From contig OZ001293.3 in the NCBI GenBank assembly GCA_963921275.4, forward strand, positions 2,688,001 through 2,752,000: a stretch of DNA of 64,000 bases. Reading direction: 5' to 3'. The position numbers were made by a program, and so were the translations under genes. This document shows positions 28,231-63,471 of this stretch, one piece after another. The stretch is from an uncultured Hormoscilla sp. GTDB lineage: Bacteria > Cyanobacteriota > Cyanobacteriia > Cyanobacteriales > Desertifilaceae. The first letter of the stretch is position 1; the number at the start of each line of letters is the position of its first letter. Under the pieces are notes generated by a model. The model did not search any database. It was not told the DNA's origin and worked only from the letters and a program-made list of their open reading frames with translations.

Positions 28231-29101
28231 GGATGGGGTCGAGCCGGGAATCGCTTCCCGACCCTCCCTTTCGGAACCGGACTTGCGATTTTCACCGCAT
28301 CCGGCTACTGGGTACTAGGCCCTTTTCATAGGTAGACTTAATAGGAATTACTTCCGTTAGCCCTTGCCGCCTGTCTTTTCTTCCCTTTCCTGGTTTAGCG
28401 AGTGGTTGTTCTGATAACCGTTAGTATCACCATTTTCAAGTCAGTTTTACCAGTTATCCATACCTTATCCTCCACTTGCGTTTCGGATTAGTTCCGTGGC
28501 TTTTTAGGATTACTCATTCCAGCAGCTTCCTAGTATCACCGACCCACGTCAGCGCTGGCTACCCAGCATCATCTACATTACTGTAGATGTTATCCCAGGA
28601 ATTACCCCGGGCATTCGCTTCTTGGGCCATCCCTCCCCCCGTGGCTTGCGCTTAACATCTAACTTGTCCTGATGGACAGCACACGAGAGGTTACTTCGTT
28701 CCCTAACAACATTTCGCGATACCTTTAGGTCCACACTATACCCCGGGAGCTATTTGAGTACTATATTAGCCAGAGTCTAAAACTAATACTAGCTACCATT
28801 TCCTTTTTAGGCCAGCGCATATAGCCTTATTTCGCTGGTTCCTTATAACGAGGCTTGCACATGTTTGCCTGCTCTAACCTTGGATATCTTTCCTAGCGGC
28901 GTCACCGGCTTAGGCTGCCAGTTATCCTACATTTGAGTCCTCGCTTAGCACCACGATGATGTCGCTTCGTAGCACCGAGGACCGGTGTCACCCCCGTACC
29001 TGGGGGGAGGGGAATTTAACCCCCATGCGGTCAGAGTTCCCGGCTAATGAAACCGGGCTAGCGTTCCGTGTTTGACCACGTTAGGCTAGAACGAATCGCA
29101 C
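28231..29101 (-). mobile_element. ORF-less group II intron (copy 1)
   Basis: 5' GTGCGATTCGTT; DV GTAGCCGGATGCGGTGAAAATCGCAAGTCCGGTTC; DVI; EBS1 AGACT complementary to the 5' flank. Confidence 0.9.
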
Positions 29102-29255
29102 AGACTGATTAAGAGTAAGTCAAGTTATCTTTTACTTGACCGCTTACCAGGAGAGATACCCTGCCAGAGCGTTCGTCTCCTGATTATAGATCGCGATCTT
29201 CCTTCTTGTCCTCTCAAGCTTCTATGCTAACAGATACAGCGCCAAAAGCCCAAAG

Positions 29256-30599
29256 ATGTGTTTTGACAAAGTTCTGATTGCCAACCGAGGAGAAATAGCC
29301 CTCCGCATTCTCCGCAGCTGCGCAGAAATGGGGATTTCCACTGTTGCGGTGTATTCTACGATCGACCAGCACGCCCTTCACGTGCAGCTGGCAGACGAAG
29401 CGGTTTGTATCGGTGAACCTCCGAGCAGCAAAAGTTATCTGAATATTCCCAATATCATTGCCGCCGCCCTGACAACAAATGCTACGGCCATTCATCCGGG
29501 CTACGGCTTTTTAGCAGAAAATGCCAAATTTGCAGAAATTTGTGCCGCTCACCAAATTGCTTTCATTGGTCCAACTGCTACAGCTATCCGGGCGATGGGA
29601 GATAAATCCACCGCTAAGGAAACCATGCAACGAGCCTCTGTACCAACCGTTCCTGGCAGTGAGGGACTGGTGGCAGATGAAACAGCCGCCCTTGCTATCG
29701 CCCAGGAGATTGGCTATCCGGTCATGATTAAAGCTACAGCCGGTGGCGGTGGACGAGGGATGCGCCTGGTGCGGTCTGAAAGTGAACTGGTTAAACTCTG
29801 GCAAGCGGCCCAGGGAGAAGCGGAAGCGGCCTTCGGTAATGCTGGGGTCTATATAGAAAAATTTATCGAGAGCCCCCGCCACATCGAATTTCAAATTCTG
29901 GCCGACAACAATGGGAATGTCATCCACCTGGGAGAACGAGATTGTTCCATCCAGCGGCGTCATCAGAAGCTGTTGGAAGAAGCCCCCAGTCCCGCCCTCA
30001 CCCCAGAACTGCGCTCGAAAATGGGTCAGGCGGCGGCGATCTCGGCCCAGTCCATCAACTACACTGGGGCAGGCACCGTAGAATTTCTCCTGGACAAAAA
30101 TGGCCATTTTTACTTCATGGAGATGAACACCCGCATTCAAGTCGAGCATCCGGTTACGGAAATGATTTGCTCTCTTGATTTGATTGCCGAACAAATCCGG
30201 ATTGCCTCGGGAGAGAACCTACCCCTAACCCAAGAGGAAGTGGTTTTGCGGGGTCATGCGATCGAATGTCGGATCAATGCCGAAGACCCCGATCTCAACT
30301 TCCGTCCCCATCCCGGGCGAATTAGTGGTTATCTGCCTCCCGGTGGCCCCGGCGTCCGCATGGATTCTCACGTCTACACAGATTATGAAATCCCACCGTA
30401 CTATGATTCCTTAATCGGCAAATTAATTGTCTGGGGACATGACCGGTCGGCTGCGATTAAACGGATGAAACGGGCCTTGCGAGAATGTGCCATTACTGGT
30501 ATACCAACCACGATTGCTTTCCATCAAAAGATTCTGGAGACATCAGCATTCAAAGAAGGTGAGGTCTACACCAATTTTGTCGAACAGCACTTCGGCTAG
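29256..30599 (+). CDS. accC: Acetyl-CoA carboxylase biotin carboxylase subunit
   Basis: [41 protein letters not shown]. Confidence 0.98.
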
Positions 30600-30877
30600 T
30601 GCATCATGGTTATTAATCCCTGCTGACCGAGGAGAATTTCTCCCATGAGGGTGAGGATCGCCACCCAAATAATCGGGGTAATGTCTACGCCACCCAAAGG
30701 AGGCACGATTTGGCGCAACGGCACTAACAAGGGTTCCGTAGGCCAAGCAATCAGATTAAAGGGCAAACGATTCAGATTCACCTGAGGATACCAGGTCAGG
30801 ACGATCCGGAAGATGAAGGCAAAGATCATCAGTCCCAGGACTGGACCGAGGACAAGGCTAGCAATGCTCGCAAACAT
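30596..30877 (-). CDS. YggT family membrane protein
   Basis: [25 protein letters not shown]. Confidence 0.92.
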
Positions 30878-30987
30878 GGGTCAATATATGATTGTCAGAT
30901 ATAATCGGGAGTCAAGAAACTGTTCAATATTGTGACAGATGGTTTAAATTAAGATTTAAGCAATTCTAGTGACAGAGGGTGAGGATT

Positions 30988-31107
30988 ATGACTCCTTCGT
31001 TGACAAATTTTTTTTTGAGCCTATTATTGGGGGGCGTGATTGTGGTCATTCCCGTAACGGTGTCGCTGATATTTATCAGCCAAAAGGATAAGATTATTCG
31101 GTCCTAG
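30988..31107 (+). CDS. psbX: Photosystem II protein PsbX (39 aa, not in the ORF track)
   Basis: [46 protein letters not shown]; conserved yggT-psbX-ycf66 order. Confidence 0.93.
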
Positions 31108-31293
31108 ACCAATAGGCACTGAATAACCTTCCTCGTGGGGTCTCGACAGCTGTAGAGATCTGATAGACTGAGGTGGACAAGCGGTAGCTCGGGGTAGTAA
31201 ACTAACGGCAGAACCCGGGAGTTTACTACCCCCGCTGTCAAGTGAGAAGAGACCCAACTGCCACAAAGATAAAACAGGCTGAGGAGAAATGGA

Positions 31294-32160
31294 ATGGTAA
31301 ACATTGGACTGAATCCAGGTGCTATGCTGGGCATTGTCCTGTTTGGGGCAGGGGCTGGGTTATATTTTATGCGATCGGTCCGTCCCGAGTTAGCCCGCGA
31401 TCACGATATATTCTTTATGGCAGTGGCTATACTCAGTGGCGGCATTCTGTTTTTTCAAGGATGGCGGCTGGATCCGATCCTGACTTTCGGTCAGTTCCTG
31501 CTGACGGGATCGGCGATTTTTTTTGCGGTCGAAAGCATTCGTCTGAGAGGGTTAGCTACTTCACAAGCTAAGCGGAATACGCCAATTGTGGATTACGATC
31601 GACCTGTAAGCCGTGTTTATGAGGCGGAACTAGATGACTTTGAACTAGAAGACGATCCGCAGATGACCCGTAGGATGATCGGAACTAGGGAAGGCAGGAA
31701 TACCGGTGTGGACGAATACGATGACGATCTGCCTAGATCGAGCACAACTAGACGTTCGACTTCGAGGTCTCTCGGGAGCGCTACTCGCACTACCCGAGAG
31801 ACCTCGACTCGTACTAGACCAGGTGGTGGTTCAACGGCCAGACGGAGTACTTCGATGTCCGACGGGCGCGCTACTCGCACTACCGGTCGGACATCGACGC
31901 GGCGTCCGCGTCCGACCACAGACCGGAGAATTAGGGATGCTGATGATTGGGAAACACCGAAAGATACTTACGGACGAAGCAGTGAAAATGACTCGCCTAG
32001 GCGCGATCGCCCGACAGCTTCTGCCAAGGGATCGAGAAGAAGTCGTCCCCCCAGATCTTATGATGCTCAAGAGCAAACAAACTATGTTGATTTCCAACCT
32101 GTAGAGAAAAGATCGTCGGACGACGAGGATGATGATAATTCAAGTGGTTTTGACTACTAA
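31294..32160 (+). CDS. ycf66: Ycf66 family protein with two in-frame hairpin insertions
   Basis: RPELARDHDIFF, FQGWRLDPILTFGQ, ESIRLRG. Confidence 0.93.
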   Translation: MVNIGLNPGAMLGIVLFGAGAGLYFMRSVRPELARDHDIFFMAVAILSGGILFFQGWRLDPILTFGQFLLTGSAIFFAVESIRLRGLATSQAKRNTPIVDYDRPVSRVYEAELDDFELEDDPQMTRRMIGTREGRNTGVDEYDDDLPRSSTTRRSTSRSLGSATRTTRETSTRTRPGGGSTARRSTSMSDGRATRTTGRTSTRRPRPTTDRRIRDADDWETPKDTYGRSSENDSPRRDRPTASAKGSRRSRPPRSYDAQEQTNYVDFQPVEKRSSDDEDDDNSSGFDY

Positions 32161-32274
32161 CAGGCGAGACGTATGTAGTGCCTAATGGGTTGACAGAGTA
32201 TTGGGTATATGGTATATTACAATGCTCCCATAAGTTGTGCTCACTGACAACTGACAACTGACAGGAGATAGGCT

Positions 32275-32820
32275 TTGGGAAAACTTTGGTTGCTGAGGTT
32301 AGCCATTCCTTTGAGTATGTCGGGTTTAGTTGTAGCCTGCTCTCAGGTGAAGGGACCGATACTGTCGATGGAACTCAATAGCCGCTACACGGATGAACAA
32401 CCGGCTTTGAGCGGAAATGGTCGATTTGTGGCCTTTGTTTCTAACCGCGATGGTAAGCGTCAGATTCTGGTTTACGATTTGCAGCAGCGCCGGTTTTTAG
32501 AGTTGCCGAGATTGAACTGGCGAGATGCGATCGCGGAATCTCCCAGCCTCAGCTATAATGCCCGCTATCTGGTCTACGTTGCTAGTGACCGAGGCAGACC
32601 GGAGGTGGGACTTTACGATCGGGTGACGGGAACGACAGATATTTTGACAATGGGTTATCGGGGCTGGGTGAGAAATCCGAGTATTAGTCCGGATGGTAGA
32701 TTTATTGTTTTTGAAACCGATCGTCGCGGTCAGTGGGATATTGAGGTGCTCGATCGGGGTCCATTAGTTGAGTTAGATATCCCAGATGGTCCCCTAGGCA
32801 ACTATGACTTGGCGGATTGA
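32275..32820 (+). CDS. TolB-like (PD40 repeat) lipoprotein
   Basis: LVVAC lipobox-like, PALSGNGRFVAFVS, PSISPDGRFIVF. Confidence 0.88.
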   Translation: MGKLWLLRLAIPLSMSGLVVACSQVKGPILSMELNSRYTDEQPALSGNGRFVAFVSNRDGKRQILVYDLQQRRFLELPRLNWRDAIAESPSLSYNARYLVYVASDRGRPEVGLYDRVTGTTDILTMGYRGWVRNPSISPDGRFIVFETDRRGQWDIEVLDRGPLVELDIPDGPLGNYDLAD

Positions 32821-33001
32821 ATATGGTAAAGAAGATATCCGGACAGAACCTTTCGATGTCTCTGCGGTGTCTTCGGGGTTTTTGCCATGCATCCCGAAGA
32901 CATCGAAGAGCTCTTGTCCCAGGGGACATGGCTGCGCTCCCGCAAGGGATACGGCACACAGGAGACATCGCTGATTAGTTTTGTTGACTAACAGAAGAAA
33001 A

Positions 33002-33529
33002 GTGAAACGCTTTGTTTTTATGTCAGCTGTTGCTGTTGCCAGTTTGTCGAGCAGCTGCATGGGCTACCCGCGTTTGCTGAATCAGCCCTTTGACCGAGGT
33101 GGGTGGAGTTTGAACAGTCCTGCAGCGGAGGAAAATCCTCAAATTACCGGTCGCTACATAGTCTTTACTTCCGATCGCCGCTTTAGCCAGGATGTCTATC
33201 TTTATGACATGATAGACAGGCGGATGATAGAACTGCCGAGATTGAATTCTTTAGAGGCGATCTCCTCCCACCCGAGTGTCTCTACAGATGGTCGTTATAT
33301 TACATTTGCTGCCAGTCGTCAGGGACGTTCTGATATTTACCTTTACGACAGGTCAATGGCCCTGCTACGTAACCTCACCAGCAATCTCAAGACAGAAGTG
33401 CGCAACCCTACGATCAGTGCCGATGGCACCACTATTGCTTTTGAGGCGAATGCTAATGGTCAGTGGGATATTTTTGTTTATGACCGGTCTGGACGCCCGG
33501 TCAACAACATATGGGGCAATATACCTTAA
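33002..33529 (+). CDS. TolB-like (PD40 repeat) lipoprotein, paralog
   Basis: LSSSC, PSVSTDGRYITF, PTISADG; start at GTG 33002 inferred. Confidence 0.85.
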   Translation: MKRFVFMSAVAVASLSSSCMGYPRLLNQPFDRGGWSLNSPAAEENPQITGRYIVFTSDRRFSQDVYLYDMIDRRMIELPRLNSLEAISSHPSVSTDGRYITFAASRQGRSDIYLYDRSMALLRNLTSNLKTEVRNPTISADGTTIAFEANANGQWDIFVYDRSGRPVNNIWGNIP

Positions 33530-33949
33530 TAGCCTAGAGCGTTGGTCAAGTAATAATAGTTGACAAACGGAGCTTTTTATGTATATAGCAACTAGCACGG
33601 GAATTTTTATAACAACTGAAATTATTACCCTGTATAGTTTTTTACCGAAGCCAACAGGATAGAATTATCACAAATGATTTATACCCCGTTGGTACAACAT
33701 TTATAAAGTGAGCTGCTCAGTTCAATAGGGGATTGGTTGTTTTTCGGTGTTTTTCGGTCTTCTCTAAAGAAATAAAAAAAGTCACCACAAGGCCTCGGGA
33801 AGTTGAGTCAACTTCCCGGCGCTCGACTCACGTAAGGATTAGATAAATTTCATCTATCTAGCTATGGGAGTATTCCGCGCGGAGTTGGCAAGTGGCGCCA
33901 CCATAGCTAGGGGACAATATGCATGGCTGCGCCCCCAGCGCAGCGCGAT

Positions 33950-35885
33950 CGGAAAATAGTAGGGTAAGAATAAGAGCAAGGGCTAGTATTGTGCTCATGT
34001 TTATGAATCAACAAGTATCACGCAAGTTGGCGTTAGGGGATATTAGATCGCGTCAGGGCATGGCTGCACGCTACGCTGGGGGATGGGAGCTGCTGGTTTT
34101 CGCTCAATTCAGGTATTCTGGCAATGACATGAAGATTATGAACAACCGCTACCGGACGAAGGTCAAACAAATTTTTTCGCCTGACAATATAGCGGGCTTG
34201 ATTTCAACTGCCTTTATCCTACATGAGCAAGAGAATGTTCGACAGCGGTTAGACGAGCGTAGTTTGGCTCGTCCAGATGATGTCATCTGATCGCGCTGCC
34301 CATGGCTGGGCCACGCTACGCTCCGGGGGCGCAGCCATAGCTCTCGCAATTCCTGGCAATATTGTCTCATCCGGATGGATAGAAACACTGGGACGGTTTT
34401 TGCTAGTCGTGCAGGGAGCCTGTAAGGGGCAGACAGCACACGGGAAACTTCACAACTTTACCTGGAGAAAATGGAAGAGTTATTTGATTAGGACATAAGA
34501 TAGAAAAATTATTCCCGTCAAGTACCAAAGCCGTTTTGTCAAAATTCTTGACATTTCTTACAGGCCAAGCTTGGCAAAATATTTGTCAATTTTCCTTCAT
34601 TAACGCATCTACTACTCAAATAAGCGCCATCGATATGTAACTCTACCATCTCTTGGTTTTGCGATTTTAAGTCGCTATCGAGCGACTCCACTACTATCGC
34701 TTCTGCTTCATTGGCAGCAGTTATCCTGACAGCTCGAATTACTCCTAAATCTAAATCTGTCAAAACATGACGTTTGTAGCCATCTCCCGAGTTGACTACG
34801 ATGTCTCCTGTGTGCCGTATCCCTTGCGGGAGCGCAGCCATGTCCCCTGGGACAAGAGCAAGGAGCAGAGATATCGAAGGCTTTTACGTCCATGACCCAT
34901 TTCTGGATCTTCTATAGAAATCCGCCGATTTGGCGTAACTCCTTTTTTGAGGACAGGTTTGCCTGATGTGTTAACTGTCACGTCTTGCTCAATAATGCTG
35001 TTCTCCGATTTCCAGGGTTTTCAGCACTGGCTTCCTCGGGTCAGATAGCATAGCGCTGCCCATGGCTGGGCCACGCTACGCTCCGGGGGGCGCAGCCATG
35101 CTAATTTTTTTTTCAATCAATGCCTCGACAGAATCAAAAGTATTGAGCAGAATTTCTAGTGCTTGCGAAGGTTCATTTAAGTCATCCCAGTTTAAGGACA
35201 ATGCCGCTTTAATAGAAGACCCTAATACTATTTCAGCTCCCCTTGACTTGGCAATATATTCTTGCATAAGTTCCTTGAGTGGCAGCCATCAATCGCCTTT
35301 TTTAGGGTGTGACAAACGCCAATTCTATGTATCCTCTACTTTGCCTGCTCCCCACAAAGGCAAAGAATCCAATAGCGTGGCCCATGGCTGGGCCGCGCTA
35401 CGGGGGGCGCAGCCATAGCCGCCCGCAATTTTCCTGAACCCAAGCCTCGTTTTTCTTTAGCAATCTCTACCCTTCCCTCCATTAAACGTCAGTCTAGTCC
35501 AAAATCAATGATTTTTTGTCGAAACTTGACAAAAGTCCCTTTACTAAAAGGAGGTTTTTACAATGTACCAATTGCCCGGAGCCGATTTTTCCGGAACGGT
35601 GCCATCACCAAGACTTCAATTACTTCATCATCCTCCCGTATTTGTAATATCAAAGCTAAAGCTAGTTGTGCCCGGGGGACTGGACATTTGCCTAGGGTGC
35701 TGTCGTTAAAGATTTCAGCTAATTCTAATTGAAGTTCATCTGAGAATAATTCATGACGGTTTAGGCCGAGAAATGCGATCGCGTAGCGTGGCGCAGCCAT
35801 AGAGTTTTGCTTTAGTAGATGCTCGCGATAATTTCTGATTCATCTGGTGACAGTTCAACCGGCGGATTCCAATTCCGTTCGCCCA
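33950..35885 (-). mobile_element. Heavily degraded IS1182-like transposase pseudogene invaded by micro-repeats
   Basis: Fragments RHELFSDELQLEL..AQLALALILQ, RRISIEDPEMGHGRKS, DGYKRHVL, ELHIDGAYL; boundaries approximate. Confidence 0.75.
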
Positions 35886-36124: not shown

Positions 36125-37035
36125 GGTCGGGGTCGAGCTAGGAATCGCTCCCCAACCCTCCAAGAGCGAAACCGTGCTTGCGACTTTCACCGCACACGGC
36201 TACTGGTTACCAGGTCCTTGTCATGGATAGGCTTTATAGGGGTTACCCACCGTAGGCCCTTACTGTCTACTTGTTGGCTCCTTCTATGTGCAGGTCAGCG
36301 AGCGGTTGTCAAGGAACCTGTGGTCTCTCGCCTAGTTTATATCGCCGTCCGACGGCAGTCACCCTGTTTCACCTACACCTTCACTCATACCTCCATCAGT
36401 CCCCGAGGGGTCCAAATCGGGCTCATAATATATGTGGAGTTACTAATCTGAACAGCATCCTGGTATATCCGTCCCACGTCAGCGTCCTTGTGGACATCAC
36501 CGGGATTGCTCCGGGCGTTATCCCAGGCATTACCCTGGGCATTTGCTTTTTGGGACATCCCTCCTCCCGTGGCTTGCGCTTAATATCTAACTTGTCTAGC
36601 CGGTCGAGACCAGACAGCACACGAGAGGTTACTTCGTTCCTTGATGTCATTTCACGATATCTTTAGGTCCGTACTATTCCCCGACAGTCTTTCGGATACA
36701 TGACTAGCCACTGCCCAAAGCTAGCCCTGACTGCTTCCCCTTTTGGGGCCAGCGTATATAGCCTTATTCCGCTGGTTTTGGTTAACGAGGTTTTTATACG
36801 TTCGCTTGTTCTAACCTTGGATATCTTTCCTAGCGGAGTCACCGATTTAGGCTACCAGCTATCCTACATTTGAGTCCTCGCTCAGCACCACGGTGATATC
36901 GCTCCGCAGCACCTCCGACCGGTGTCAACCCTGCATCTGGGCGGGAGGAATTTAACCCCCATGAACATCAAAGTTCCCGGTTGATGTAACCGGTCGCTCA
37001 TGACCTGTTGCGGGTCATTTACGAACGAATCGCAC
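36125..37035 (-). mobile_element. ORF-less group II intron (copy 2)
   Basis: 5' GTGCGATTCGTT; DV GTAGCCGTGTGCGGTGAAAGTCGCAAGCACGGTTT; ends CGACCCCGACC; EBS1 GGGCAG pairs with flank CTGCTC. Confidence 0.9.
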
Positions 37036-37065
37036 GAGCAGTTATCCAATCGCATATCGTAGCGT

Positions 37066-37572
37066 GCAGCCATGGGTGGCGCAGCCATAGAACTTGGCAC
37101 TATCCAGTATAAGTACATAGGCAAAATTATTTTTATATTTTTCCTAGCCGTCAATTTCCGTATCCCTACGGGAGCGCAGCCATGAAGTTAAATCCCTGAA
37201 AGCCTTATGAGATATGGCTTGAGCGCCCACCCTGCCCGTTCGCGCTTTTCCACAAATAGAAAAATCATTTTGCACAACTACTTACTACATTGATTTGATT
37301 ATAGCACGTCCGTATTCAGCAGCCATGGGTGGCGCAGCCATAGAACTTGGCACTATCCAGTATAAGTACATAGGCAAAATTATTTTTATATTTTTCCTAG
37401 CCGTCAATTTCCGTATCCCTACGGGAGCGCAGCCATGAAGTTAAATCCCTGAAAGCCTTATGAGATATGGCTTGAGCGCCCACCCTGCCCGTTCGCGCTT
37501 TTCCACAAATAGAAAAATCATTTTGCACAACTACTTACTACATTGATTTGATTATAGCACGTCCGTATTCAG
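37066..37572. repeat. 253-bp tandem duplication
   Basis: 37066-37319 repeated at 37319-37572. Confidence 0.92.
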
Positions 37573-44011: not shown

Positions 44012-46433
44012 GTGCGATTCGTTTAGGGTAAAATGACTTGACACGTGTCAAAAAAGGGGACCGCTAGCAGGGTTTCAATAGCCCTGACAACTTACAGATG
44101 ATGGTGGTGAAAGCCCACCCCTCCAGGTGCTCTCGTGACAGCATCCTCCCGACGGTAGCGATGGCATCAATCCGTAAAGCGGGAAGGAAAGGCGCTCTAA
44201 CTGGTAGCCTAAACCGGTCATCGTCGAGCAAGTAGTCATGATGAGCGCAAGCAAAGGTTCATAAGTGTCGTCAACATCAACCAGTGTAATAAGGCTGAGA
44301 CACTGGCCCAAAAGGGAAAGGATAATGGTCATTAGCGGTTGTAATCCGACTAATAAGCACTGACAACAAACCCGGCATATAGAATCCATCTAAAACTACG
44401 ATTAATCATCTGTAGGAACGAAGTAACCCAGCTAGGCACTCTCCATCACCGGTCGATAGATGGAGTAGTCACCAAAGACGCAACATCTGCTCTCATTTGG
44501 CAGGTCATAGCTGGGAAAGATTGAGTGGAGAAGCAAACGCCTATCTGTAATGGATGGGATAAGCTGACGCCCTCACGGTTTTGTCAATTGTGAAGTTGTG
44601 AGTAGTAGTTAATATGTCACGGAACTTAGCCGAAAAGCAAGAGTATGAATGGAAGGAGGTGCCCTGGCAGGAGCTGGAGCGCCGATCGCGCTAGCGTGGC
44701 GCCAGCCATGTCTTCAAGCTACAAAAGCGAATTTACAGAGCGGCACAGGAAGGCAACAAGCGGAAAGTTCGCAAGCTCCAAGGGTTACTAAATAGGTCAT
44801 GGTCCACGAAGATGATAGCGGTGAGACAGGTAACACAACAAAACCAAGGAAAGAATGCGGCTGGTGTGGATGGTGTGAAAGCACTGACTATGGAGCAGCG
44901 ACTGGAACTGGTAAGTCAGCTCAGAGTATCCAGGAAGGCAAAGGCGAAACCTACACTGCGTGTATGGATACCTAAGCCAGGAAGGGACGAAAAGCGGCCA
45001 CTAGGAAGACCGACGATGCACGACCGCGCACTTCAGGGATTGGTCGTCAAACAGTCGCTTGAGCCCGAATGGGAAGCGTACATGGAAGCCAATTCCTACG
45101 GATTCAGACCAGGAAGGGGATGCCACGATGCGATCGAAACGATATTCACCAGCACCAACAAGAAACCAAAATGGGTGTTAGATGCGGATATTGCGAAATG
45201 TTTCGACAAAATTGACCACTCAGCGCTCCTAGAGAAATTGAATACAACATCACCAATCCGTAGACAGATACGGGCATGGCTAAAAGCCGGGGTGATGGAC
45301 CAGGGAATATGGCAGGACACAGAAGCCGGAACTCCTCAAGGCGGAGTAATATCACCATTGCTAGCCAATATAGCCCTACATGGGTTGGAAAAGGTAGTGA
45401 TGAGTCTTGCCCGCACAAAGAGAGAGGAAAAGAAACTAACGATAGTCAGGTACGCCGATGATTTTGTGGTAATGCACGATGACCGGTCAATGATTGAGCG
45501 AGCACAAGGAGTGATTGAGGAGTGGTTGAAGGGAATAGGACTAGAGCTAAAAGCCGAGAAAACCAGGATATCCCACACACTGGAAGGAGAAAACCCCGGA
45601 TTTGACTTCCTAGGGTTCAATATCCGACAATACAAAGTAGGGAAACACAGAAGCGGCAAACTCAGCAACGGAACCCCCCTAGGATTCAAGACCCTAATCA
45701 AGCCTAGCGATAAATCCATTAGGAATCATAAAGAGCAACTATCACAGATAGTTCGCCGCCATAAATCGGCACCACAGACAGCCTTGATAGTCAAACTAAA
45801 CCCAATGATAAGGGGATGGAGCAACTACTTCAAGACGGTGGTAAGTAAGGAAACTTACAGCGACATGGATAGCTACCTATGGGAGCTGCTGTGGCAATGG
45901 GCAAAGAGAAGGCATCCCAATAAATCGGGCGAATGGATTGCCAAAAATTATTGGGCCATGACCGGTAAGGACCGGTGGAGGTTCATCGGTAAATCCAAGA
46001 AAGGAGAAATAAAGCTAATCCGGCACTCTGAAACTGAAATAATCAGACACACAAAGGTAAAGGGGACAGCTAGCCCGCTTGACGGTAACCTAGTCTACTG
46101 GAGCCAGAGATTACGAAAGAGCCCGGACGTAAGCATGAGAGTGATTAACCTGCTCAAGAGGCAGGATGGCAAGTGCCAGCATTGCGGACTAACGTTTAAG
46201 GACGGCGACAAATGGAAGTGGACCACATCCTGCCAACCTCACTGGGAGGTAAGAACTGGTACTCCAACCTACAGTTGCTGCACGACTACTGCCATGATTA
46301 TAAATCTGCCAGGGATGGCAGCAAAGGCCGTATCCATGACAAGGATGACGAAACTGAGGAGCCGGATGAGGTGAAAGTCTCACGTCCGGTTTTGAAGACG
46401 AGTCGGTACGGTGACGTACTGGCTTAGTTTAAT
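44012..46433 (+). mobile_element. RT-encoding group II intron (chloroplast-like class) in the 5' region of the downstream gene
   Basis: 5' GTGCGATTCGTT; DV GAGCCGGATGAGGTGAAAGTCTCACGTCCGG; ends TTAGTTTAAT; EBS2 AACATC pairs with flank GATGTT. Confidence 0.93.
44614..46427 (+). pseudogene. ltrA: Group II intron RT/maturase/HNH protein with an in-frame TAG at 44692 and a frameshift at ~46210
   Basis: VFKLQKRIY, AGVDG, SYGFRPGR, GTPQGG.ISPLLANI, YADD, CQHC...VDH...HDYCH. Confidence 0.88.
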
Positions 46434-52486: not shown

Positions 52487-53578
52487 CTACACGTTAAATC
52501 GGAACAGCATTACGTCACCCTCCTGCACTACATAATCCTTACCTTCACTGCGGACTAAACCCTGAGTCTTCGCCGCAGTCATCGAACCCGTGGCCACCAA
52601 ATTCTCATAAGATATTGTCTCCGCCCGAATAAAACCGCGCTCAAAATCAGAGTGAATCACCCCAGCAGCTTGGGGTGCTTTCATCCCCGCTATAATCGTC
52701 CAAGCCCGGGTTTCCTTGGGACCAGTAGTCAAGTAAGTCCGCAAGCCCAAAATTTCATAGGTCGCCCGGATCAGGGATTTTAACCCGCCCTCTGCAACTC
52801 CCAGAGAAGCGAGAAAATCTGCTCTTTCTTCTGCTGGTAACTCAATTAATTCTGATTCCACCTGGGCAGAAATAACTACCACTTGGGCATTTTCGGCTGC
52901 TGCTATTTCCCGCACTTGTTCCACCCAACTGTTCCCCGTTGCCAAGTCATCTTCCGATACATTGGTCCCATAGATGACAGGTTTAGCCGTCAACAACCCC
53001 AAAGGCTTGACAGACTCCGCTTCCTCTGCTGTTAACTCAGCCTGTCGCGCCCCCATACCCTCATTTAACACCGCCATTAGCTTTTCCAGGGCTGCCAACT
53101 CCAGCTGAGCCTCCTTACTTGTACGGGCCTGCTTGCGGGTGCGTTCCATCCGGCGCTCAACTTGGGCCAGATCCGATAAAGCTAACTCTAAATTGATCAT
53201 TTCGATGTCTCGGACTGGATCGATCGTCCCAGAAACATGGATAATGTCATCATTCTCAAAACAGCGCACCACATGGACGATCGCATCTACTTCCAGGATA
53301 TTGGCTAAAAATTTATTTCCCAGTCCTTCGCCCTTGCTGGCACCTTTGACCAAACCAGCAATATCGACAAACTCCACCCGAGTTGGTACGATTTGCTCAG
53401 ACTGGGAGATTTTCGCTAGCACCTGCAACCGCTCGTCCGGCACGGCCACCACCCCCACATTGGGTTCGATCGTGCAGAAAGGGAAATTGGCCGCTTCTGC
53501 TTTAGCATTGGCAACCAGGGCATTAAACAAAGTAGATTTGCCCACATTGGGCAGTCCGACAATTCCAGCTCTTAGCAT
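52487..53578 (-). CDS. ychF: Redox-regulated ATPase YchF
   Basis: GIVGLPNVGKST, NFPFCTIEPN, DIAGLV, IHSDFERGFIRAE. Confidence 0.98.
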   Translation of the reverse strand: MLRAGIVGLPNVGKSTLFNALVANAKAEAANFPFCTIEPNVGVVAVPDERLQVLAKISQSEQIVPTRVEFVDIAGLVKGASKGEGLGNKFLANILEVDAIVHVVRCFENDDIIHVSGTIDPVRDIEMINLELALSDLAQVERRMERTRKQARTSKEAQLELAALEKLMAVLNEGMGARQAELTAEEAESVKPLGLLTAKPVIYGTNVSEDDLATGNSWVEQVREIAAAENAQVVVISAQVESELIELPAEERADFLASLGVAEGGLKSLIRATYEILGLRTYLTTGPKETRAWTIIAGMKAPQAAGVIHSDFERGFIRAETISYENLVATGSMTAAKTQGLVRSEGKDYVVQEGDVMLFRFNV

Positions 53579-53626
53579 CTTAGTATCAGAGTAAAAATTT
53601 AGCTGTTGGTCAACTAGGTTTGTGCA

Positions 53627-54461
<835 letters not shown>

Positions 54462-57070: not shown

Positions 57071-57300
57071 TTTCTCTTTCCATCCCCTATATTTTGTCTA
57101 TTTTGAGGCTTTCAGGCTCTCGAACTAGGCATTTTACCTTTTTTTTGAAGCTTTCGGGCTCTCAAACCAGGCATTTTACCTCTTTTTTGAAGCTTCGGGG
57201 CTCTCGAACCAGGCCCGAAAGCTTCTAGCGCTACGCGCACTTCGTATCCGCTCTCGTTGCTAGTAGTTATACCTGGTCCAGCAACATTTCAGTACAGAGT

Positions 57301-57429
57301 TAAGTAGGTGTGCATAATTAAACTCAATGGAAGTAAAGTTTTGTTAAGTTGGCTGAAAGCCCCTCCCAGAAAGAGATCATCTTTTTACATTTCTTAACAT
57401 AGGCTGGTTTATTTGTGCCTACCTACTTA
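57301..57429. mobile_element. ~130-bp MITE (inverted copy 59834-59963)
   Basis: TAAGTAGGTGTGCATAATTAAA/TTTATTTGTGCCTACCTACTTA termini; homologous interiors. Confidence 0.85.
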
Positions 57430-57911
57430 CCAGGCGGCGGTTGATAGGTTACTGGTCAATACTTCAAGGTTTTGCATCTTAGAAGTCATTGCGAGGGGGG
57501 GTACTCCGCGATTAACTTATGCTTTATGAGTTAACCCCCCCCGAAGCAATCCCCCCCGCGACCTATGAGATGAAGAGCGCTCCGGCGTCGTCGATTGCTT
57601 CGGGGGGGGATATAAGCGGAGATACTCACAATGTTGGTTTGGACTCCCCCCCTCGCTCCGGACAAGTTATTAACCGAGAAGTATTGGGTTACCGGTAGCG
57701 CAATACCTCAAGGTTTTGCCAGAACTCCTAACAGCCAAGGGGCTGAAATGCTTGAAATACCGTTGTTTTACTTGTCCGGAGGGTGCTTAACCGAAAAGTA
57801 TTGACCGGTAGCGGTGGGAGCGAGAAGTAAGGATTTATGACAAATGACAAATGACTTGAGAAAAATTCGTTAAAGTGTGCAAAAGCCTTTCTTAATCTTC
57901 TTAACCTTCTC

Positions 57912-58829
57912 ATGTCTGGCAACTTCTTCCTCTCTTCTACAACCACTGCGAATAGAGTGCCTTGGTCTCGTATCATCAGTGGCATAGTGGCGATCGCCCT
58001 AGCTTTGTCGATGACATTGCTGGGGGGATGGTACTTTACCATTGGTTTCGGGATTATCATCTATCTGGGTGAACTGGAGTACTTCCAGCTAGTGCGGGCG
58101 ACGGGAATAGCCCCAGCAGGTAAAACCACTTTGGTGGTCAGCCTGATCTTGCTAGCCTTCTGTACCTTGTCTTCCACCTTGGCAGATGCGGTATTGCCAG
58201 TAGCTGGCACGCTGATTTGTTTTTATCTGCTGTTTCAGCCCAAACTGGCGACGATTGCTGATATTGGCTCTTCCATTTTGGGCTTGTTCTATTGCGGCTA
58301 TTTGCCCAGTTACTGGGTGAGACTGCGGGCGCTGGGTACTGAAGGCCACAGTAACTTACCCCTAGGAGGGTTCTGGCCAGAAAACTGGAGTAACTTGAAA
58401 GAACTGCCCCAGGGTCTGACTATTACCCTGCTGACCTTTCTGTGCATCTGGGCAGCAGATATCGGTGCATACAGCTTTGGCAGAGTCTTCGGTCGCACCC
58501 GCCTGTCCCACATCAGCCCCAAAAAGACCGTAGAAGGGGCTGTATTTGGGGTGATGGGTAGCGTGGCGGTAGCTATTTTGGGTGCTTGGTATCTGGACTG
58601 GCCCAGCTTTACATTGACGGGGGCTCTCTTGGGTCTGATGATTGGTATTGCCAGCCTGCTGGGAGATTTAACCGAGTCAATGATGAAGCGAGATGCTGGT
58701 GTCAAGGATTCGGGGCAACTAATTCCCGGTCATGGCGGGATTCTCGATCGGGCGGATAGCTATGTTTTCACGGCCCCTCTAGTGTATTATTTCGTGACCC
58801 TGCTGTTGCCCTTACTGTCCGGTTTGTAG
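57912..58829 (+). CDS. cdsA: Phosphatidate cytidylyltransferase
   Basis: WAADIGAY, ISPKKTVEG, GDLTESMMKRDAGVKDSG.LIPGHGGILDR. Confidence 0.96.
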   Translation: MSGNFFLSSTTTANRVPWSRIISGIVAIALALSMTLLGGWYFTIGFGIIIYLGELEYFQLVRATGIAPAGKTTLVVSLILLAFCTLSSTLADAVLPVAGTLICFYLLFQPKLATIADIGSSILGLFYCGYLPSYWVRLRALGTEGHSNLPLGGFWPENWSNLKELPQGLTITLLTFLCIWAADIGAYSFGRVFGRTRLSHISPKKTVEGAVFGVMGSVAVAILGAWYLDWPSFTLTGALLGLMIGIASLLGDLTESMMKRDAGVKDSGQLIPGHGGILDRADSYVFTAPLVYYFVTLLLPLLSGL

Positions 58830-58867
58830 TCAGCGCTTTAGCCGGTTTGTAGTCAGCGCTTTGGCGC

Positions 58868-59674
58868 TTAGCGAGTTCTTAATCCTTGCTCCTTGAGGAC
58901 GCCATATGCCCAAACAGCATCAGCTTTTGATAATTTGGGTACGGGTTCACAACTGTAATCTATCACTAAATCATAACTACCTTGATCGTATACAGTATGT
59001 AACAATTCTTGGAAAGGAATCATTGGTTAAGGATCTGATTCTGTTGTTAACGGTAAGGGAATGACAGTAATTTTATCTTGAACATTAAAAGCATATAAAT
59101 CAGCTTTTGGGCGAGTGTTACTGCGACTAACTAAAATCCGATAATGGGTCTGAATTTTCTGACTATCCATTGGCATAATTCTGCCTTTGCGCAGCAAATC
59201 AACCTCAATCAAATGGGTTAAGCTGTCCAAAATTTTCTGACGCTTAGTTTCGTAGCTACTACGACCTGGTCCGGCTTTTTTGTTCTTAGGACTCAGAATT
59301 TCAATCACTGTTATCACTGCACCGGTTGCCACATCTCGCACTTCTAAATACCATTCCTTAACTGTTTTCGGTAGAGGCAGGGTAACTTTGACCGGTAAGG
59401 AAGGCGGTGCCGCAACAGCTACATTTGATTCCAGGGAGTGACTAGATGTGGGAGAAGTTTGTACCAAGACATTATCAGGAATACCCACAAGCAGAGAATC
59501 ACCATTTTGGGTGTCATTCGCTGCATAAACTCTTTCTTCAATTTCCATCCGATATTTAGGGCGAATTTGAGGGTTCATGGCATTAGCTATTGCCACGATT
59601 AACCGCTTATGTATTTGAGGCCAAATTTGGGAATTTTCTAAATAGGGATTCATCCCAGGAAATGGAGAAGGCAT
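58868..59674 (-). pseudogene. DUF4058 family protein with a premature TAA at 59027-59029
   Basis: MPSPFPGMNPYLE, IEILSPKNK; frame continues PMIPFQELLHTVYDQGSYDLVIDY to TAA at 58868. Confidence 0.85.
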
Positions 59675-59777
59675 GGGTTGTGTCTCCTACAAGACAGTTT
59701 ATTAGCAGTGAGCAGTACCAGTGCGACTCAGTACCAGTGCGACTCAGTACCAGTACCATGACCTGACCAGTGACAAC

Positions 59778-60012
59778 TATCAACTGACAACTATCAACTG
59801 ACAACTATCAACTGACAACTATCAACTGACAACTAAGCAGGTAGGCACAAATAAACCAGCCTATGTAAAGAAATATAAAATCGCTGAATTCTCTTCTGGG
59901 AGAGGCTTTGAACTAAGTTAACAAAAGTTTACATAGTTAATTTTAATTATGCACACCTACTTATCAACTGACAACTATCAACTGACAACTATCAACTGAC
60001 AACTATCAACTA
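59778..60012. repeat. Heptamer tandem repeats (CAACTGA/CAACTAT), split by the 59834 MITE
   Basis: Alternating 7-mers on both sides of the MITE; STRR-type repeats. Confidence 0.85.
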
Positions 60013-60033
60013 TCATGATAATTATATCCTATT

Positions 60034-60798
60034 TCAAGGCATCACTTTGACTCGACCGTGACAAACTACTAGGCCAGGACTGAGGGTTAATTCTTGGATT
60101 TCTACTTCTTTCCCTAAGTCAAGAGGGAAACTCTCTCGGTTTGGGACTCTTATGTCTGGTGGCATCTGGAGATCTAGGGGATACAGCTGCAATTCATGAT
60201 TGCTAGCCAGTTGCACTCCGCTGCGAATCACCATTGGGGCGACATTGCCATCGGCGTCTAGTAAGCTGCCTGTGACGGTCAAGCCACCAGCTTCTAGGGC
60301 AATCTTGTGCCAGTGCGGGGCGCGGTTTCCGATGACTTCAGAGTTAATTTTGCTGTCCGATGTCAGTAGCTGACAGAGTAAGTCGGTTAAGGCCCGAGAG
60401 AGCAAACTATCTTCTGAGGACAGTCCAGCATTCAGGTCTGCTTCCTCTAGCTGTACCTGACCGACTACGGGCACCGGTGCTCCCAAGCGCAGGGGTTTTC
60501 CCCGCAATATCTGAAGCAGGTTGATGCTAATGCCTTCTGCTACTAGCTGGAGATGACTCAGATGCAATCCTTGATAGACCGCTTTGTCCGCCGATAGGAA
60601 GATTCGGGGGATAAGACCAGCAATCAGCAGGCGATCGCCCGCTTCTATATTTACTTGTAGCTGTGCCACTGACTCTACTTGGGTACGCAACCACCGCTTT
60701 ACTGCCGGCGATAGCACTCTCTTCAGCTTCTGGCTTTGGCGCGAATGCACCTTTTTTCTCTGGTCAAAAGATCCCAAGTTGTCATCACTTCTTGACAT
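60034..60798 (-). CDS. DUF2993 (LmeA-like) protein
   Basis: VLSPAVKRWLRTQVE, AVYQGLHL, INLLQILRGKPLRL. Confidence 0.8.
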   Translation of the reverse strand: MSRSDDNLGSFDQRKKVHSRQSQKLKRVLSPAVKRWLRTQVESVAQLQVNIEAGDRLLIAGLIPRIFLSADKAVYQGLHLSHLQLVAEGISINLLQILRGKPLRLGAPVPVVGQVQLEEADLNAGLSSEDSLLSRALTDLLCQLLTSDSKINSEVIGNRAPHWHKIALEAGGLTVTGSLLDADGNVAPMVIRSGVQLASNHELQLYPLDLQMPPDIRVPNRESFPLDLGKEVEIQELTLSPGLVVCHGRVKVMP

Positions 60799-61192
60799 TA
60801 CTATCCTAGATTATGGTTTTTTTGTCAGGATCTCATGACGAAAATATTCTTAAAAGCCCCAAAAACCAAGAAAATAGTTAAAATTTGTCAAAATAAATTT
60901 GATCTCCTCTTGATCTCCAAGAAAAATTGTTGCAATATGTAAAGAGAGCGATCCCGACGAGCCCAGGCCATTGAATGGCAAGGGAAGCAAAGCCCTGTAT
61001 CCCCCGGGTAGTGCGAGTAGCGCTCCCGGGGGATACAGCAGGAAGTCAAAACGACCGGCAAGAATGCTTGCGTCTGCGCTCCGACCGCCTAGGGCTCGCT
61101 CACACAGCAGAATATAAGCTTGGTGGAAATTGTAGAACTTGGAGTGAGGGAGCGATAGGATCGAGCCGGACAAAATACTGGAGATCAGATCA

Positions 61193-62425
61193 ATGGCAAA
61201 AGAACGCCCACCTTTAGAAGAGATGACCTTACGGCAACTGCGCAAAGTTGCTAGTCAATATGGCATCTCTCGCTACAGCCGGATGCGAAAGGAGCAGCTA
61301 CTAGCTGCGATTAAAGAAATACAACTGCGTAGTAAGTTTTCAACAAATCAATCTCGTTCATTGGAGGCACAAGAAGAAGTGGAAGCAGCAAAATTTGAAC
61401 TGGGTCAAGACGATCGTGTTGGTGGTACTCTGTCTGCTGTAGATGAAGGACTAACGGATTTATCTGCGGGCTATGGTGAAAGCCGCATTGTGCTGATGCC
61501 CCGTGACCCGCAATGGGCATACACATATTGGGATGTGCCCAATGAGCACAAGGAAGAACTGCGGCGTCAAGGGGGACAACAACTGGCTCTGCGCCTGTAC
61601 GATGTCACCGATGTTAACCTGGATTATGAAAGCCCCCACAGCATTCAAGAATATCCTTCTGATGAGTTGGCGCGGGAATGGTATTTGCCCATTCCAGTGA
61701 GCGATCGGGCCTATGTGGTAGATATTGGTTACCGCTGTGCTGATGGTCGCTGGCTAGTGTTGGCTCGTTCTGCGCCCGTACAGATTCCTCCAGTCTATCC
61801 TTCTGACTGGATTGAAGACCATTTCATCACTGTGAACTGGGATGAAGACCTGCGCGGCCAGACCCTGTTTGAACTGGTTCCTCCCAGCAAGAAAGTCGCT
61901 GCCCAAAGCAACCCGATCTATGATGAAATCTTCGGCATGGCAGAAGGGGCAGAAGCTCAGCGGGTTGCTGGTTCTCTGTTCGGTTCCATGCAGCATGTTC
62001 CTGGTTCGATGGTTCCCTCTCAAGCTGTCAGTTCTTATGTCTTCCCCTCGGGCGTGGGTATGTGGGCAGTTCCGACCGCGTCTGGTTTGAATATGTCCGG
62101 TGTGGGCATGTCTGGCGCTGGTTTCTCGGCTTCCGCTATCCCTATGCGCCCCCGCAAGTTCTGGTTAATTGCTGATGCTGAGCTGATTGTTTACGGTGCT
62201 ACTGAGCCTGATGCTACTGTGACGATCGGGGGACAGCCCATCAAGCTCAATCCCGATGGCACGTTCCGCTTCCAGATGTCCTTCCAGGATGGTCTGATTG
62301 ACTACCCAATTATGGCAGTTGCTGCTGATGGCGAGCAAACTCGCTCTATCCACATGAAGTTCAACCGCGAAACTCCTTCTCGCAATACTAACACTAAGGA
62401 AGAAGCGGTTCTGGAATGGGTCTAA
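61193..62425 (+). CDS. DUF4912 protein with Rho-N-like N-terminal domain
   Basis: MTLRQLRKVA..YSRMRK, LMPRDPQWAYTYWD, ADAELIVYGATEPDA. Confidence 0.92.
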   Translation: MAKERPPLEEMTLRQLRKVASQYGISRYSRMRKEQLLAAIKEIQLRSKFSTNQSRSLEAQEEVEAAKFELGQDDRVGGTLSAVDEGLTDLSAGYGESRIVLMPRDPQWAYTYWDVPNEHKEELRRQGGQQLALRLYDVTDVNLDYESPHSIQEYPSDELAREWYLPIPVSDRAYVVDIGYRCADGRWLVLARSAPVQIPPVYPSDWIEDHFITVNWDEDLRGQTLFELVPPSKKVAAQSNPIYDEIFGMAEGAEAQRVAGSLFGSMQHVPGSMVPSQAVSSYVFPSGVGMWAVPTASGLNMSGVGMSGAGFSASAIPMRPRKFWLIADAELIVYGATEPDATVTIGGQPIKLNPDGTFRFQMSFQDGLIDYPIMAVAADGEQTRSIHMKFNRETPSRNTNTKEEAVLEWV

Positions 62426-62556
62426 ATATATCCCAAATCTCATCCCCCCCACCCTCAAGGGTGGGGCTACAGATACAAAGCCCGCCTGCGCGGGCTTTAT
62501 TCTCGTTACCAGGCTCAGCCTGGTAACGTAGGTTTAGAGGCTCCCGCCTCTAGTAT

Positions 62557-63471
62557 GGTCGGGGTCGAGCTGGGAATCACTTCCCAACCCTCCCTTTCGG
62601 AACCTGAAGAGCGACTTTCACCGCACACGGCTACTGGTTGGTAAGCTCTTGTCATCAGCAGGATTACTAGGGGTTACCCCCGTTGTTCCTTGCCCCATGA
62701 GATTTTGCCCCTTTGTGGTTAGCCAACAGACCGTTTTAGTACCTAGCTCCGGAAGGTTCGCGGAGGAGAACCAGCAAACCGCACTAGCCGCTCTTTGCTA
62801 ACATGGTCCCCATTTACTTTTTTACTCGGGGTTCTGAGTTTTTACCCGGCTAGGATTTTAGTCCATCATTCATCCTTTAAGATTGCTCCTTAGTCTATGA
62901 CTTTTTAAGGCTAGTTTCTCCCAAGGCTTCTTACCATATCCGTCCTACGTCTGCATATCCACAGGCATTACCCTGGGCGTTGGCTTCTTAGGACATCCCT
63001 CCCACCCACACTTGCTTGCGCTTTACATCTAACTTGTCCCTGGGGACAGCGACGTGGGGGTTACTTCGTTCCTTGATGCCATTTCGCGAGGCTTTTAGGT
63101 CTCCCCTATATACCGGCAGTTCTTTCGGATACGTCCTTAGCCACATATGAAAGCTAAGGCGCTGCCTGCTTTCCTATTTTAGGCCGGTGTTAGTCAGCCA
63201 TTACACCGGTTAGTATTAACGATACTTACAGGGATTTGCCTGCTCTAACCATGAACCTCTAATAAGCGCGGAGTTGCCAGTTTGGCTACTAGCTATCCTA
63301 CATTTGAGTCCTCGCTTGGCACCACGATGATGTTACTTCGCAGCACTGAGAACCGATGTCAGCCCCGTATCTGGGCGGAGGGAATTTAACCCTCATGGCA
63401 CCAAAGTTACCTGGCAAATAAGACCAGGTCCGATTTTCACCATTACTGGTTTACATCAGAACGAATCGCAC
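62557..63471 (-). mobile_element. ORF-less group II intron (copy 4, degenerate DV)
   Basis: 5' GTGCGATTCGTT; DV GTAGCCGTGTGCGGTGAAAGTCGCTCTTCAGG; ends CGACCCCGACC. Confidence 0.88.

Follow-up and report, generated by a model that had tools for sequence, protein, structure and literature searches.

A genome-wide family of group II introns without open reading frames, probably retargeted through their exon-binding sites, in an uncultured Hormoscilla

The window analysed here, a 64,000-nt stretch of the genome of an uncultured Hormoscilla sp. (contig OZ001293.3, positions 2,688,001 to 2,752,000), holds four group II introns without an open reading frame (ORF), called copies 1 to 4 below, and a fifth intron that encodes a reverse transcriptase (RT). 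It lies within a 6.88-Mb contig of a 7.03-Mb assembly. The original prediction, made from the sequence alone, listed four ORF-less introns of 835-915 nt with a common scaffold; coordinates, sizes and the absence of an ORF agreed with our analysis, whereas the fifth, RT-encoding intron of the same span had not been listed. Repeat finding in the window tied together stretches near 28.2-29.1, 36.1-37.0, 53.6-54.5 and 62.5-63.4 kb, and a profile built from the four copies gave six window matches, namely the four full-length introns and two pieces of the fifth (Table 1). All four copies start with GTGCGATTCGTTC as read from the sequence, and the GTGCG 5' end is found in 4/4 window copies and in 292 of the 293 full-length copies of the genome. 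The final T of copy 3 (54461) was counted as intron because a nested copy of the same subfamily leaves an uninterrupted host sequence only if this T is so counted. The longest sense stop-free stretches in the four copies are 57-79 amino acids, and the window RT used as a tblastn query found no similarity inside any of them. Domains V and VI of copies 1 to 3 were recognised by the Rfam model RF00029 (gathering cut-off 40 bits), and predicted folds place a bulged A 8 nt from the intron 3' end.

Table 1 Introns of the window with their exon-binding sites (EBS) and intron-binding sites (IBS), and genes split by related introns elsewhere in the genome. Positions are those of the window unless a profile or another contig is named.
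Feature	Position	Strand	Description and evidence
Copy 1, ORF-less group II intron	28231-29101	-	871 nt; subfamily F00; nhmmer full-length match and sequence read
Copy 2, ORF-less group II intron	36125-37035	-	911 nt; subfamily F06; nhmmer full-length match and sequence read
Copy 3, ORF-less group II intron	53627-54461	+	835 nt; subfamily F01; nhmmer full-length match (53627-54460) and sequence read
Copy 4, ORF-less group II intron	62557-63471	-	915 nt; singleton subfamily F13; nhmmer full-length match and sequence read
Copy 1 EBS elements	EBS1 28778-28773; EBS2 28845-28841; candidate EBS2a 28847		EBS1 AGACTC; EBS2 TAAGG; candidate EBS2a U
Copy 2 EBS elements	EBS1 36716-36711; EBS2 36782-36778		EBS1 GGGCAG; EBS2 ACCAA
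Copy 3 EBS elements	EBS1 53948-53953; EBS2 53881-53885		EBS1 TGCACT; EBS2 TCTAG
Copy 4 EBS elements	EBS1 63149-63144; EBS2 63216-63212		EBS1 CATATG; EBS2 ATACT
Copy 1 5' exon target	29102-29117	-	IBS1 CAGTCT (-6..-1); IBS2 TCTTA (-13..-9); A at -15
Copy 2 5' exon target	37036-37051	-	IBS1 CTGCTC; IBS2 TTGGA, 1 base further upstream than that of copy 1, then A
Copy 3 5' exon target	53611-53626	+	IBS1 GTGCA; IBS2 CTAGG; A at -14
Copy 4 5' exon target	63472-63487	-	IBS1 CAATTG; IBS2 GGTAT; A at -14
Domain V/VI, copy 1	28233-28309	-	Rfam RF00029 (Intron_gpII), 46.4 bits
Domain V/VI, copy 2	36138-36204	-	Rfam RF00029, 45 bits
Domain V/VI, copy 3	54383-54460	+	Rfam RF00029, 47 bits
Fifth intron, RT-encoding, other RNA clade	44012 to ~46437 (3' end approximate)	+	RF00029 46357-46433, 58.5 bits; nhmmer pieces 44012-44657 and 46331-46397
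DUF3352 gene, split	profile 4-188 / 189-489		Pfam on exon halves
zwf (glucose-6-phosphate dehydrogenase), split	G000:C1:6446257-6448728; G6PD_C profile 1-137 / 138-296		Pfam on exon halves
SpoIIE phosphatase gene, split	SpoIIE profile 3-65 / 68-190		Pfam on exon halves
DUF6851 gene, split	profile 1-107 / 113-140		Pfam on exon halves
pPIWI_RE_Z gene, split (weak)	profile 4-110 / 116-167		second half E 0.0075
Class II ribonucleotide reductase gene	G000:C1:848295-852694 (L010)		ORF-less F18 intron, and an intein with a LAGLIDADG domain

Consensus folding with RNAalifold, on an alignment of one representative from each of 32 subfamilies defined below, gave a structure with compensatory changes in most helices. 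The hexamers named in the original prediction do lie in EBS loops. EBS1 forms part of a terminal loop of 9 nt (TT-NNNNNN-T) on an 8-bp stem; 8/8 pairs of this stem show two-sided compensatory changes, and across the 32 representatives 97.6% of its cells are paired. The two arms of this stem are TATTAGTT/GGCTAATA in copy 1, GGCTAGCT/GGCTAGTC in copy 2, TGCTGGTT/GGCCAGTA in copy 3 and CCTTAGCT/GGCTAAGG in copy 4, and the corresponding loops read TT-AGACTC-T, TT-GGGCAG-T, CT-TGCACT-T and TT-CATATG-T. EBS2 occupies a single-stranded junction between two covarying helices, directly 5' of a conserved hairpin. Pairing with the flanks was scored over six EBS1 and five EBS2 positions in one fixed register with G-U counted as a pair (maximum 11), a score that understates EBS2 pairing because the IBS1-IBS2 spacing differs by 1 base in some subfamilies. 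Copies 1 to 4 pair with their own flanks at 10, 9, 10 and 9 of 11 positions, compared with 2-6 for swapped intron-flank pairs. With each intron assigned to its own flank the scores total 38, whereas no other of the 24 permutations exceeds 29, so own-flank complementarity exceeds that of shuffled pairs; the individual pair counts of the original prediction were likewise correct as read from the sequence. A chance origin of the EBS-flank matches was ruled out by this comparison of own with swapped pairing and by the derangements given below.

Uninterrupted counterparts of two of these sites exist in relatives. The copy 1 site is empty in two same-genus genomes, G002 and G003, where CTTAATCAGTCT runs directly into ATTATGCTT (flanks 98% identical in G002), and the copy 4 site is empty in G002, where GTATGTCAATTG runs directly into ATACTAGAGG. 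Copy 3 is absent from the orthologous place in all four same-genus genomes, in which the 3' side has diverged, and the flank of copy 2 had no counterpart in these four. Insertion was exact and without target duplication, and since the sites are empty in the relatives it postdates the split from them; both the lack of duplication and the recency are expected for reverse splicing. In G002 (L015, G002:C2:1926282-1930480) a different family member, with 68% identity to copy 1, lies about 100 nt downstream of the empty copy 1 site in the same spacer. Among sequencing runs, the locus is well represented only in the contigs of four, all belonging to one study, from which the assembly may derive. These contigs break at repeats; from the 5' flank they extend 24 nt into copy 3 in three runs and 9 nt in the fourth, and none of the contigs listed bridges an empty site. 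An assembly artefact was ruled out by the unique flanks within the 6.88-Mb contig and by the presence of the family in 4/4 same-genus genomes.

The original prediction of a large non-autonomous family was right in kind and understated its scale. A profile search of the genome gave 660 matches, which lie without exception on the main contig and cover 388,729 bases (5.5% of the genome), and a strict rule retained 293 full-length ORF-less copies; about 25 further matches that end 3-5 profile positions early are excluded from all counts. Together, introns and RT-coding matches cover 496,694 bases, or 7.06% of the genome. A hidden Markov model of the intron located 474 5' ends and 404 3' ends, and the Rfam model found at least 151 domain V matches (150 of 867 first-look candidates scored). 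The 293 copies form 32 subfamilies at 95% single linkage, with sizes of 138, 71, 16, 14, 8, 7, 5, 4 and 3, then four of 2 and 19 singletons. Copies 1 and 3 belong to the two largest, F00 (138) and F01 (71), copy 2 to F06 (5), and copy 4 is the only member of F13. A blastn search with copy 1 returned 140 near-full copies at ≥98% identity and with copy 3 72 near-full copies at ≥99%, while copy 2 returned five copies and copy 4 only itself. In F00, 64 of 138 copies equal the consensus and mean divergence is 0.13%; in F01, 13 of 71 do so and mean divergence is 0.19%. Copy 1 differs from the F00 consensus at two positions and copy 3 matches that of F01 exactly. F00 and F01 are thus recent bursts of near-identical copies. 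All four same-genus genomes carry the family, with 8, 130, 155 and 198 first-look candidates against 465 here. Beyond the genus it was found in one of nine other genomes of the same taxonomic family, with short domain V matches only elsewhere.

Retargeting by EBS change, as originally proposed, is seen across the whole family. The 293 copies carry 35 distinct EBS1+EBS2 combinations, and 255 of them have a unique 30-nt 5' flank. Over these 255 sites own pairing averaged 9.04 of 11 (sd 1.23), with scores of 11 (26 sites), 10 (71), 9 (81), 8 (52), 7 (17), 6 (5) and 5 (3), compared with a mean of 4.94 over 7475 cross-family pairs, of which 128 scored 9 or more. When each subfamily was represented by one random copy, own pairing still averaged 9.27 (minimum 8.97 in 50 resamples), and 2000 derangements at this level gave 4.68 +/- 0.26 with a maximum of 5.62. 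Within one subfamily, the identical EBS faces numerous sites that differ in sequence but conform to a degenerate consensus. For F00 this is G(A/G)GTCT at -6..-1 and CCTTA at -13..-9 (n=139: -6 G in 119, -3 T in 115, -1 T in 118, -13 C in 92, -10 T in 93), with A at -15 in 96 and A in 96 or G in 26 at +1. For F01 it is G(T/C)G(T/C)A at -5..-1 with a CTAGA-like element at about -13..-9 (n=71: -5 G in 64, -3 G in 67, -1 A in 64). In F03, a cluster at ≥95% identity, two EBS sets occur on one scaffold and each fits its own flanks, which is retargeting caught in the act.

One further pair was found upstream of EBS2. The intron base 2 nt 5' of the 5-nt EBS2 forms a Watson-Crick match with the target base that immediately precedes IBS2, and an invariant A stands between this covarying nucleotide and EBS2 as delimited here. 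By subfamily majority the pair matches in 27/30 cases (permutation mean 9.7, maximum 20 in 10000), and among subfamilies without U at the covarying position in 14/16. Counted per site over the 206 of 255 sites with at least 4/5 EBS2 pairs, the matches are A-T 12/13, C-G 9/13, G-C 2/3 and U-A 109/177. Three of the four window copies have the pair; copy 1 does not. Its covariation with an intron base shows that position -14 is read by RNA. Upstream of the RNA-paired positions, information is confined to -15, where A is favoured in F00 (0.76 bits) and F01 (0.56 bits) and G in 79 pooled sites of other subfamilies (0.69 bits); positions -22 to -16 hold at most 0.20 bits. These values (0.56-0.76 bits at -15) support the relaxed protein-side target specificity that had been predicted.

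Copy 1 occupies the spacer that separates a divergent gene from tRNA-Leu(GAG) (28018-28099), 131 nt upstream of the tRNA and on the same strand. Copy 3 is inserted in antisense orientation ahead of a YchF-like GTPase gene (frame 52487-53578, minus strand), about 16 codons before its start. When copies 1 to 4 were removed in silico, no long frame crossed the junction on the intron strand. The original statement that none interrupts an intact gene therefore holds for the four window copies but fails for the family, members of which split zwf, DUF3352, SpoIIE and other genes elsewhere. With a loose criterion, a restored stop-free frame of at least 200 amino acids, 65 of the 255 unique sites were sense and 38 antisense insertions (binomial p = 0.010; random expectation 30% per strand). 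A strict criterion (at least 150 amino acids, with at least 50 on each side) gave 39 sense and 24 antisense of 255 (p = 0.077; expectation 26% per strand). Genes are thus under-hit overall relative to the random expectation, and no strand bias along the chromosome was evident in 10 bins.

We then took eight sense cases among the longest both-side frames, leaving out one RT-gene case, and submitted the exon parts separately to Pfam. In four of the eight, the exon halves fit one Pfam domain at adjoining positions (DUF3352, zwf, SpoIIE and DUF6851; Table 1). Three others part consecutive segments of a protein, namely an Eco57I-type methylase, the class II ribonucleotide reductase and a chromate transporter, and the split of a pPIWI_RE_Z gene is weak. 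For these genes to be functional, the protein-less intron would have to be spliced out.

The fifth intron of the window belongs to a different RNA clade. Its protein frame (44812-46374, 520 amino acids) contains the Pfam domains RVT_1, GIIM and RVT_N and lacks HNH. In intact siblings the protein frame continues through domains V/VI almost to the intron 3' end; in L013, for example, it stops at 2515, within the stretch that Rfam matches as domain V/VI (2445-2521). Used as a tblastn query, the window RT gave 180 genome matches, and about 20 stop-to-stop frames of 567-609 amino acids with a common end motif look intact. Both intact frames tested contain RVT_N, RVT_1, GIIM and HNH, and the best solved relative of this candidate helper is the maturase RT of Thermosynechococcus elongatus (6ME0_C, E 1.9e-105, residues 5-546 of 576). 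At least two more distant RT frames, with 41% and 35% identity, are also present, the former a 600-amino-acid protein (G000:C1:1775402-1777204). Comparison of domain I in 16 RT-encoding and 32 ORF-less sequences gave mean identities of 77.6% within the ORF-less set and 84.8% within the RT-encoding set, and the RT-encoding introns form what, on these sequences, is a separate deep RNA clade. None of 67 high-scoring 5' pieces of the ORF-less type carries an RT gene in its own domain IV, although one holds a whole nested RT-encoding intron. No autonomous sibling of the ORF-less scaffold was found in the host genome, the genome in which it was sought. The RT-encoding intron of close scaffold that the original prediction looked to was thus not found, domain I identity being 48-62%. 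A 32-nt stretch around the helper start codon does resemble domain IV of F00 (27/32 identical; score 34, shuffle maximum 28), and the start region also resembles that of F03 (score 37, shuffle maximum 25).

Introns of the two kinds are repeatedly nested. Intron or RT sequence lies on both sides of 28 of the 293 ORF-less copies, 23 of them F00, of which five are inserted in other F00 copies, at a single site. In at least eight cases an RT frame stops at residue 411, the exact start of an antisense F00 copy, and F01 occurs repeatedly at one site in domain I of RT-encoding introns. Because of this reciprocal nesting, ORF-less and RT-encoding introns can be said to share cells and history. Three head-to-tail abutting F00 pairs were also found, in which a proper IBS flank precedes the upstream copy and its +1 base is the G of the resident GTGCG. 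They are compatible with the A/G preference at +1 and would fit a second insertion into an already occupied site. Head-to-tail F00 copies occur at G000:C1:824934-826675 and 5447656-5450268, once as a pair and once as a triple.

Taken with the intron anatomy, the EBS-IBS complementarity against its controls, the exact insertion, the recency of the bursts and the sense insertions in intact genes, the four window elements are very probably non-autonomous group II introns of one RNA lineage that multiplied by retrohoming, with EBS pairing choosing the site. They are candidate members of the chloroplast-like/IIB kind; the plastid domain V families of Rfam match weakly, and an EBS2a-IBS2a type pair is present. 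A transcribed copy would be spliced with an RT/maturase from an RT-encoding intron elsewhere in the genome, and the resulting lariat-protein particle would reverse-splice into DNA at a site set almost wholly by RNA pairing. This pairing would comprise EBS1-IBS1 (6 bp, -6..-1), EBS2-IBS2 (5 bp, about -13..-9) and EBS2a-IBS2a at about -14, with A or G at +1, and at most one position, -15, would be read in any other way. The RT would then synthesise cDNA from the inserted RNA. By mutation of its EBS loops an intron may found a new subfamily with new targets, so that sites would not become saturated and bursts could succeed one another. Since no close RT-encoding scaffold exists, mobilisation in trans is a step that we infer, and its performance by the proteins of the resident RT-encoding clade appears the most economical reading of the sequences.

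Several observations weigh against this interpretation. Copy 4 has the weakest pairing, with only 4/6 EBS1-IBS1 positions, gave no RF00029 match in the Rfam scan even at E≤1, and has an atypical domain V fold, its lower helix containing a bulged G together with an internal loop. Of 92 F00 sites, only 46 show a Watson-Crick extra pair at -14. The excess of sense over antisense insertions inside genes is not robust and is suggestive only, and a search of sequencing runs returned no RNA run of the organism among the runs found. On the protein side, the window RT is frameshifted near residue 469 (siblings align only to 469), and this copy is probably defective. Domain I identity between ORF-less and RT-encoding introns is 47.7-61.8% (mean 55.1), and because the RNA clades are separate, recognition of the ORF-less RNAs by the resident proteins is not assured. 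The domain IV likeness to the helper start is at or near shuffle level in 6/8 subfamilies tested, including a score of 18 against a shuffle maximum of 23 for F01, the family of copy 3.

These last points bear on the identity of the helper. The copies may be mobile with the aid of another RT/maturase, such as the divergent 600-amino-acid protein, a free-standing RT, or an autonomous sibling that was lost or is supplied horizontally. The low domain I identity, the missing domain IV similarity in most subfamilies tested, the lack of any autonomous intron with the ORF-less scaffold in the genome and the presence of the two more distant RT frames would all suit such a helper. Yet the resident clade has about 20 intact frames, ORF-less and RT-encoding introns repeatedly nest in each other, and F00 and F03 retain a stretch like the helper start region, so we give this alternative a small chance. 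We would give only a slim one to a bolder extension, in which the ORF-less lineage is a ribozyme parasite comparable to a short interspersed element, without an autonomous sibling, using the proteins of a distant clade and partly dependent on domain V supplied in trans. Copy 4, F02, F04 and F08 share a domain V with an interrupted lower helix (bulged G and internal loop), and the GAAA loop is absent in 13/16 F02 and 3/3 F08 copies, with TTCCA in its place; F02 is nevertheless found at at least 12 different sites that fit its EBS. Were this so, F02 and F08, and the type of copy 4, might owe their catalysis to domain V of other copies, which in a bacterium would be a step towards splicing by separate RNA fragments, in the manner of small nuclear RNAs. 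Group II introns are thought to be ancestral to spliceosomal introns.

Two further possibilities concern whether the copies are mobile and selfish at all. Some might have been adopted by the host, for instance as regulators of their neighbours, as the place of copy 1 upstream of tRNA-Leu on the same strand and of copy 3 in the leader region of the YchF-like gene might suggest. Copies 1 and 3 are, however, absent in same-genus genomes and belong to very young bursts, which have left no time for conservation, and none was seen; we regard adoption as very unlikely. It is harder still to credit that the introns are inert relics spread by segmental duplication or recombination, with EBS-flank matches that are ancestral or due to chance. 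Such spread could account for the 38 of 293 copies that share a 30-nt 5' flank with another copy, and for the three abutting pairs and 28 nested copies. It does not accommodate the 255 unique flanks with own pairing far above any derangement, the exact empty sites in relatives, or the 64 of 138 F00 copies that equal the consensus at different sites.

Other features of the window were noted in passing. A palindromic repeat of about 62 nt, with the core GGGAGCGCTAC(T/A)CGCACTACCC, occurs at 27769, 31750, 31840, 40018, 47438, 56016 and 60998, and F01 introns elsewhere in the genome have copies of it as insertion sites. Next to the 5' exon of copy 2 lies a 253-nt segment in perfect tandem duplication (37066-37571), rich in short repeats like GGCGCAGCCATGG. 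At 59750-60039 two blocks of a 14-nt tandem repeat (TATCAACTGACAAC) stand about 130 nt apart. Two 24-nt matches to Rfam CRISPR-DR28 (9493-9516 and 62474-62497; 36.6 and 30.4 bits), with no array seen, are probably due to chance or part of another repeat. The host genome also has 16 matches to phycobilisome proteins, which identify it as that of a cyanobacterium.

Retrohoming of ORF-less introns directed by EBS pairing, which we favour, has parallels in several settings. The plastids of plants and euglenids hold many protein-less introns inside genes, served by a few maturases made elsewhere. Organellar ORF-less introns are mostly immobile and old, whereas the copies here are young and mobile and lie in the chromosome of a free-living bacterium. 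This chromosome is a natural case for the study of intron multiplication, protein loss and tolerance inside genes, with intact housekeeping genes, zwf and a class II ribonucleotide reductase gene, that would be workable only if a protein-less intron is removed with outside help. Engineered targetrons are retargeted through changes in the EBS loops. The 255 unique sites are a ready data set for target-site rules, with nearly all specificity, including -14, encoded in RNA, and such rules would be useful for the design of gene-targeting introns.

The closest known system is that of T. elongatus, which has 28 introns in six EBS families, mostly ORF-less and mostly outside genes, with twintrons (PMC2882425). 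Mobilisation in trans was shown there by assay, with minimal protein recognition and selection of A-15, and the account given in that report bears out the precedent that the original prediction had cited (PMC2882425). As here, the TeI3/TeI4 introns are ORF-less derivatives of the chloroplast-like/IIB kind with EBS-defined families and twintrons at conserved intron sites, protein recognition is minimal, and A-15 was selected, comparable to the enrichment of A or G at -15 in our sites (PMC2882425). The two differ in scale, with 293 copies in 32 subfamilies here, about ten times as many. They differ also in that the ORF-less and RT-encoding RNAs are described as very similar in T. elongatus, compared with about 55% domain I identity here, and in that trans-mobilisation was assay-proven there and is deduced here (PMC2882425). 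In the other aspects compared, the present family works in the manner of the T. elongatus introns.

Among 1,790 representative bacterial genomes surveyed, the maximum was 101 introns, in Arthrospira platensis, and in that survey's tables all 101 are filed as CL2A with an intron-encoded protein (IEP) and none as 'No IEP' (PMC8919778). A. platensis is likewise a filamentous cyanobacterium with very many chloroplast-like introns, and copy number varies strongly between related species there as it does between same-genus genomes here; its introns are filed with an encoded protein, whereas those here are mostly ORF-less (PMC8919778). The additional pair at -14 fits the EBS2a-IBS2a interaction of IIB introns, a single Watson-Crick pair between the nucleotide just upstream of EBS2 and target position -14 (PMC8643678). 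All four base combinations are seen at -14 in our family as well. The treatment of this pair in that paper, which also names the T. elongatus maturase RT as CL-type, gives no statistical support for it in organellar ORF-less introns, whereas here it covaries within a bacterial ORF-less family (27/30 subfamilies) and an invariant A intervenes (PMC8643678). No published bacterial genome with ORF-less copies in the several hundreds came up in our literature search, although papers outside that search could exist. The Hormoscilla introns represent a system already known in kind, here developed to an extreme and in part novel: no autonomous sibling was found for them in the genome, their bursts are very young, and intact genes would depend on their removal.

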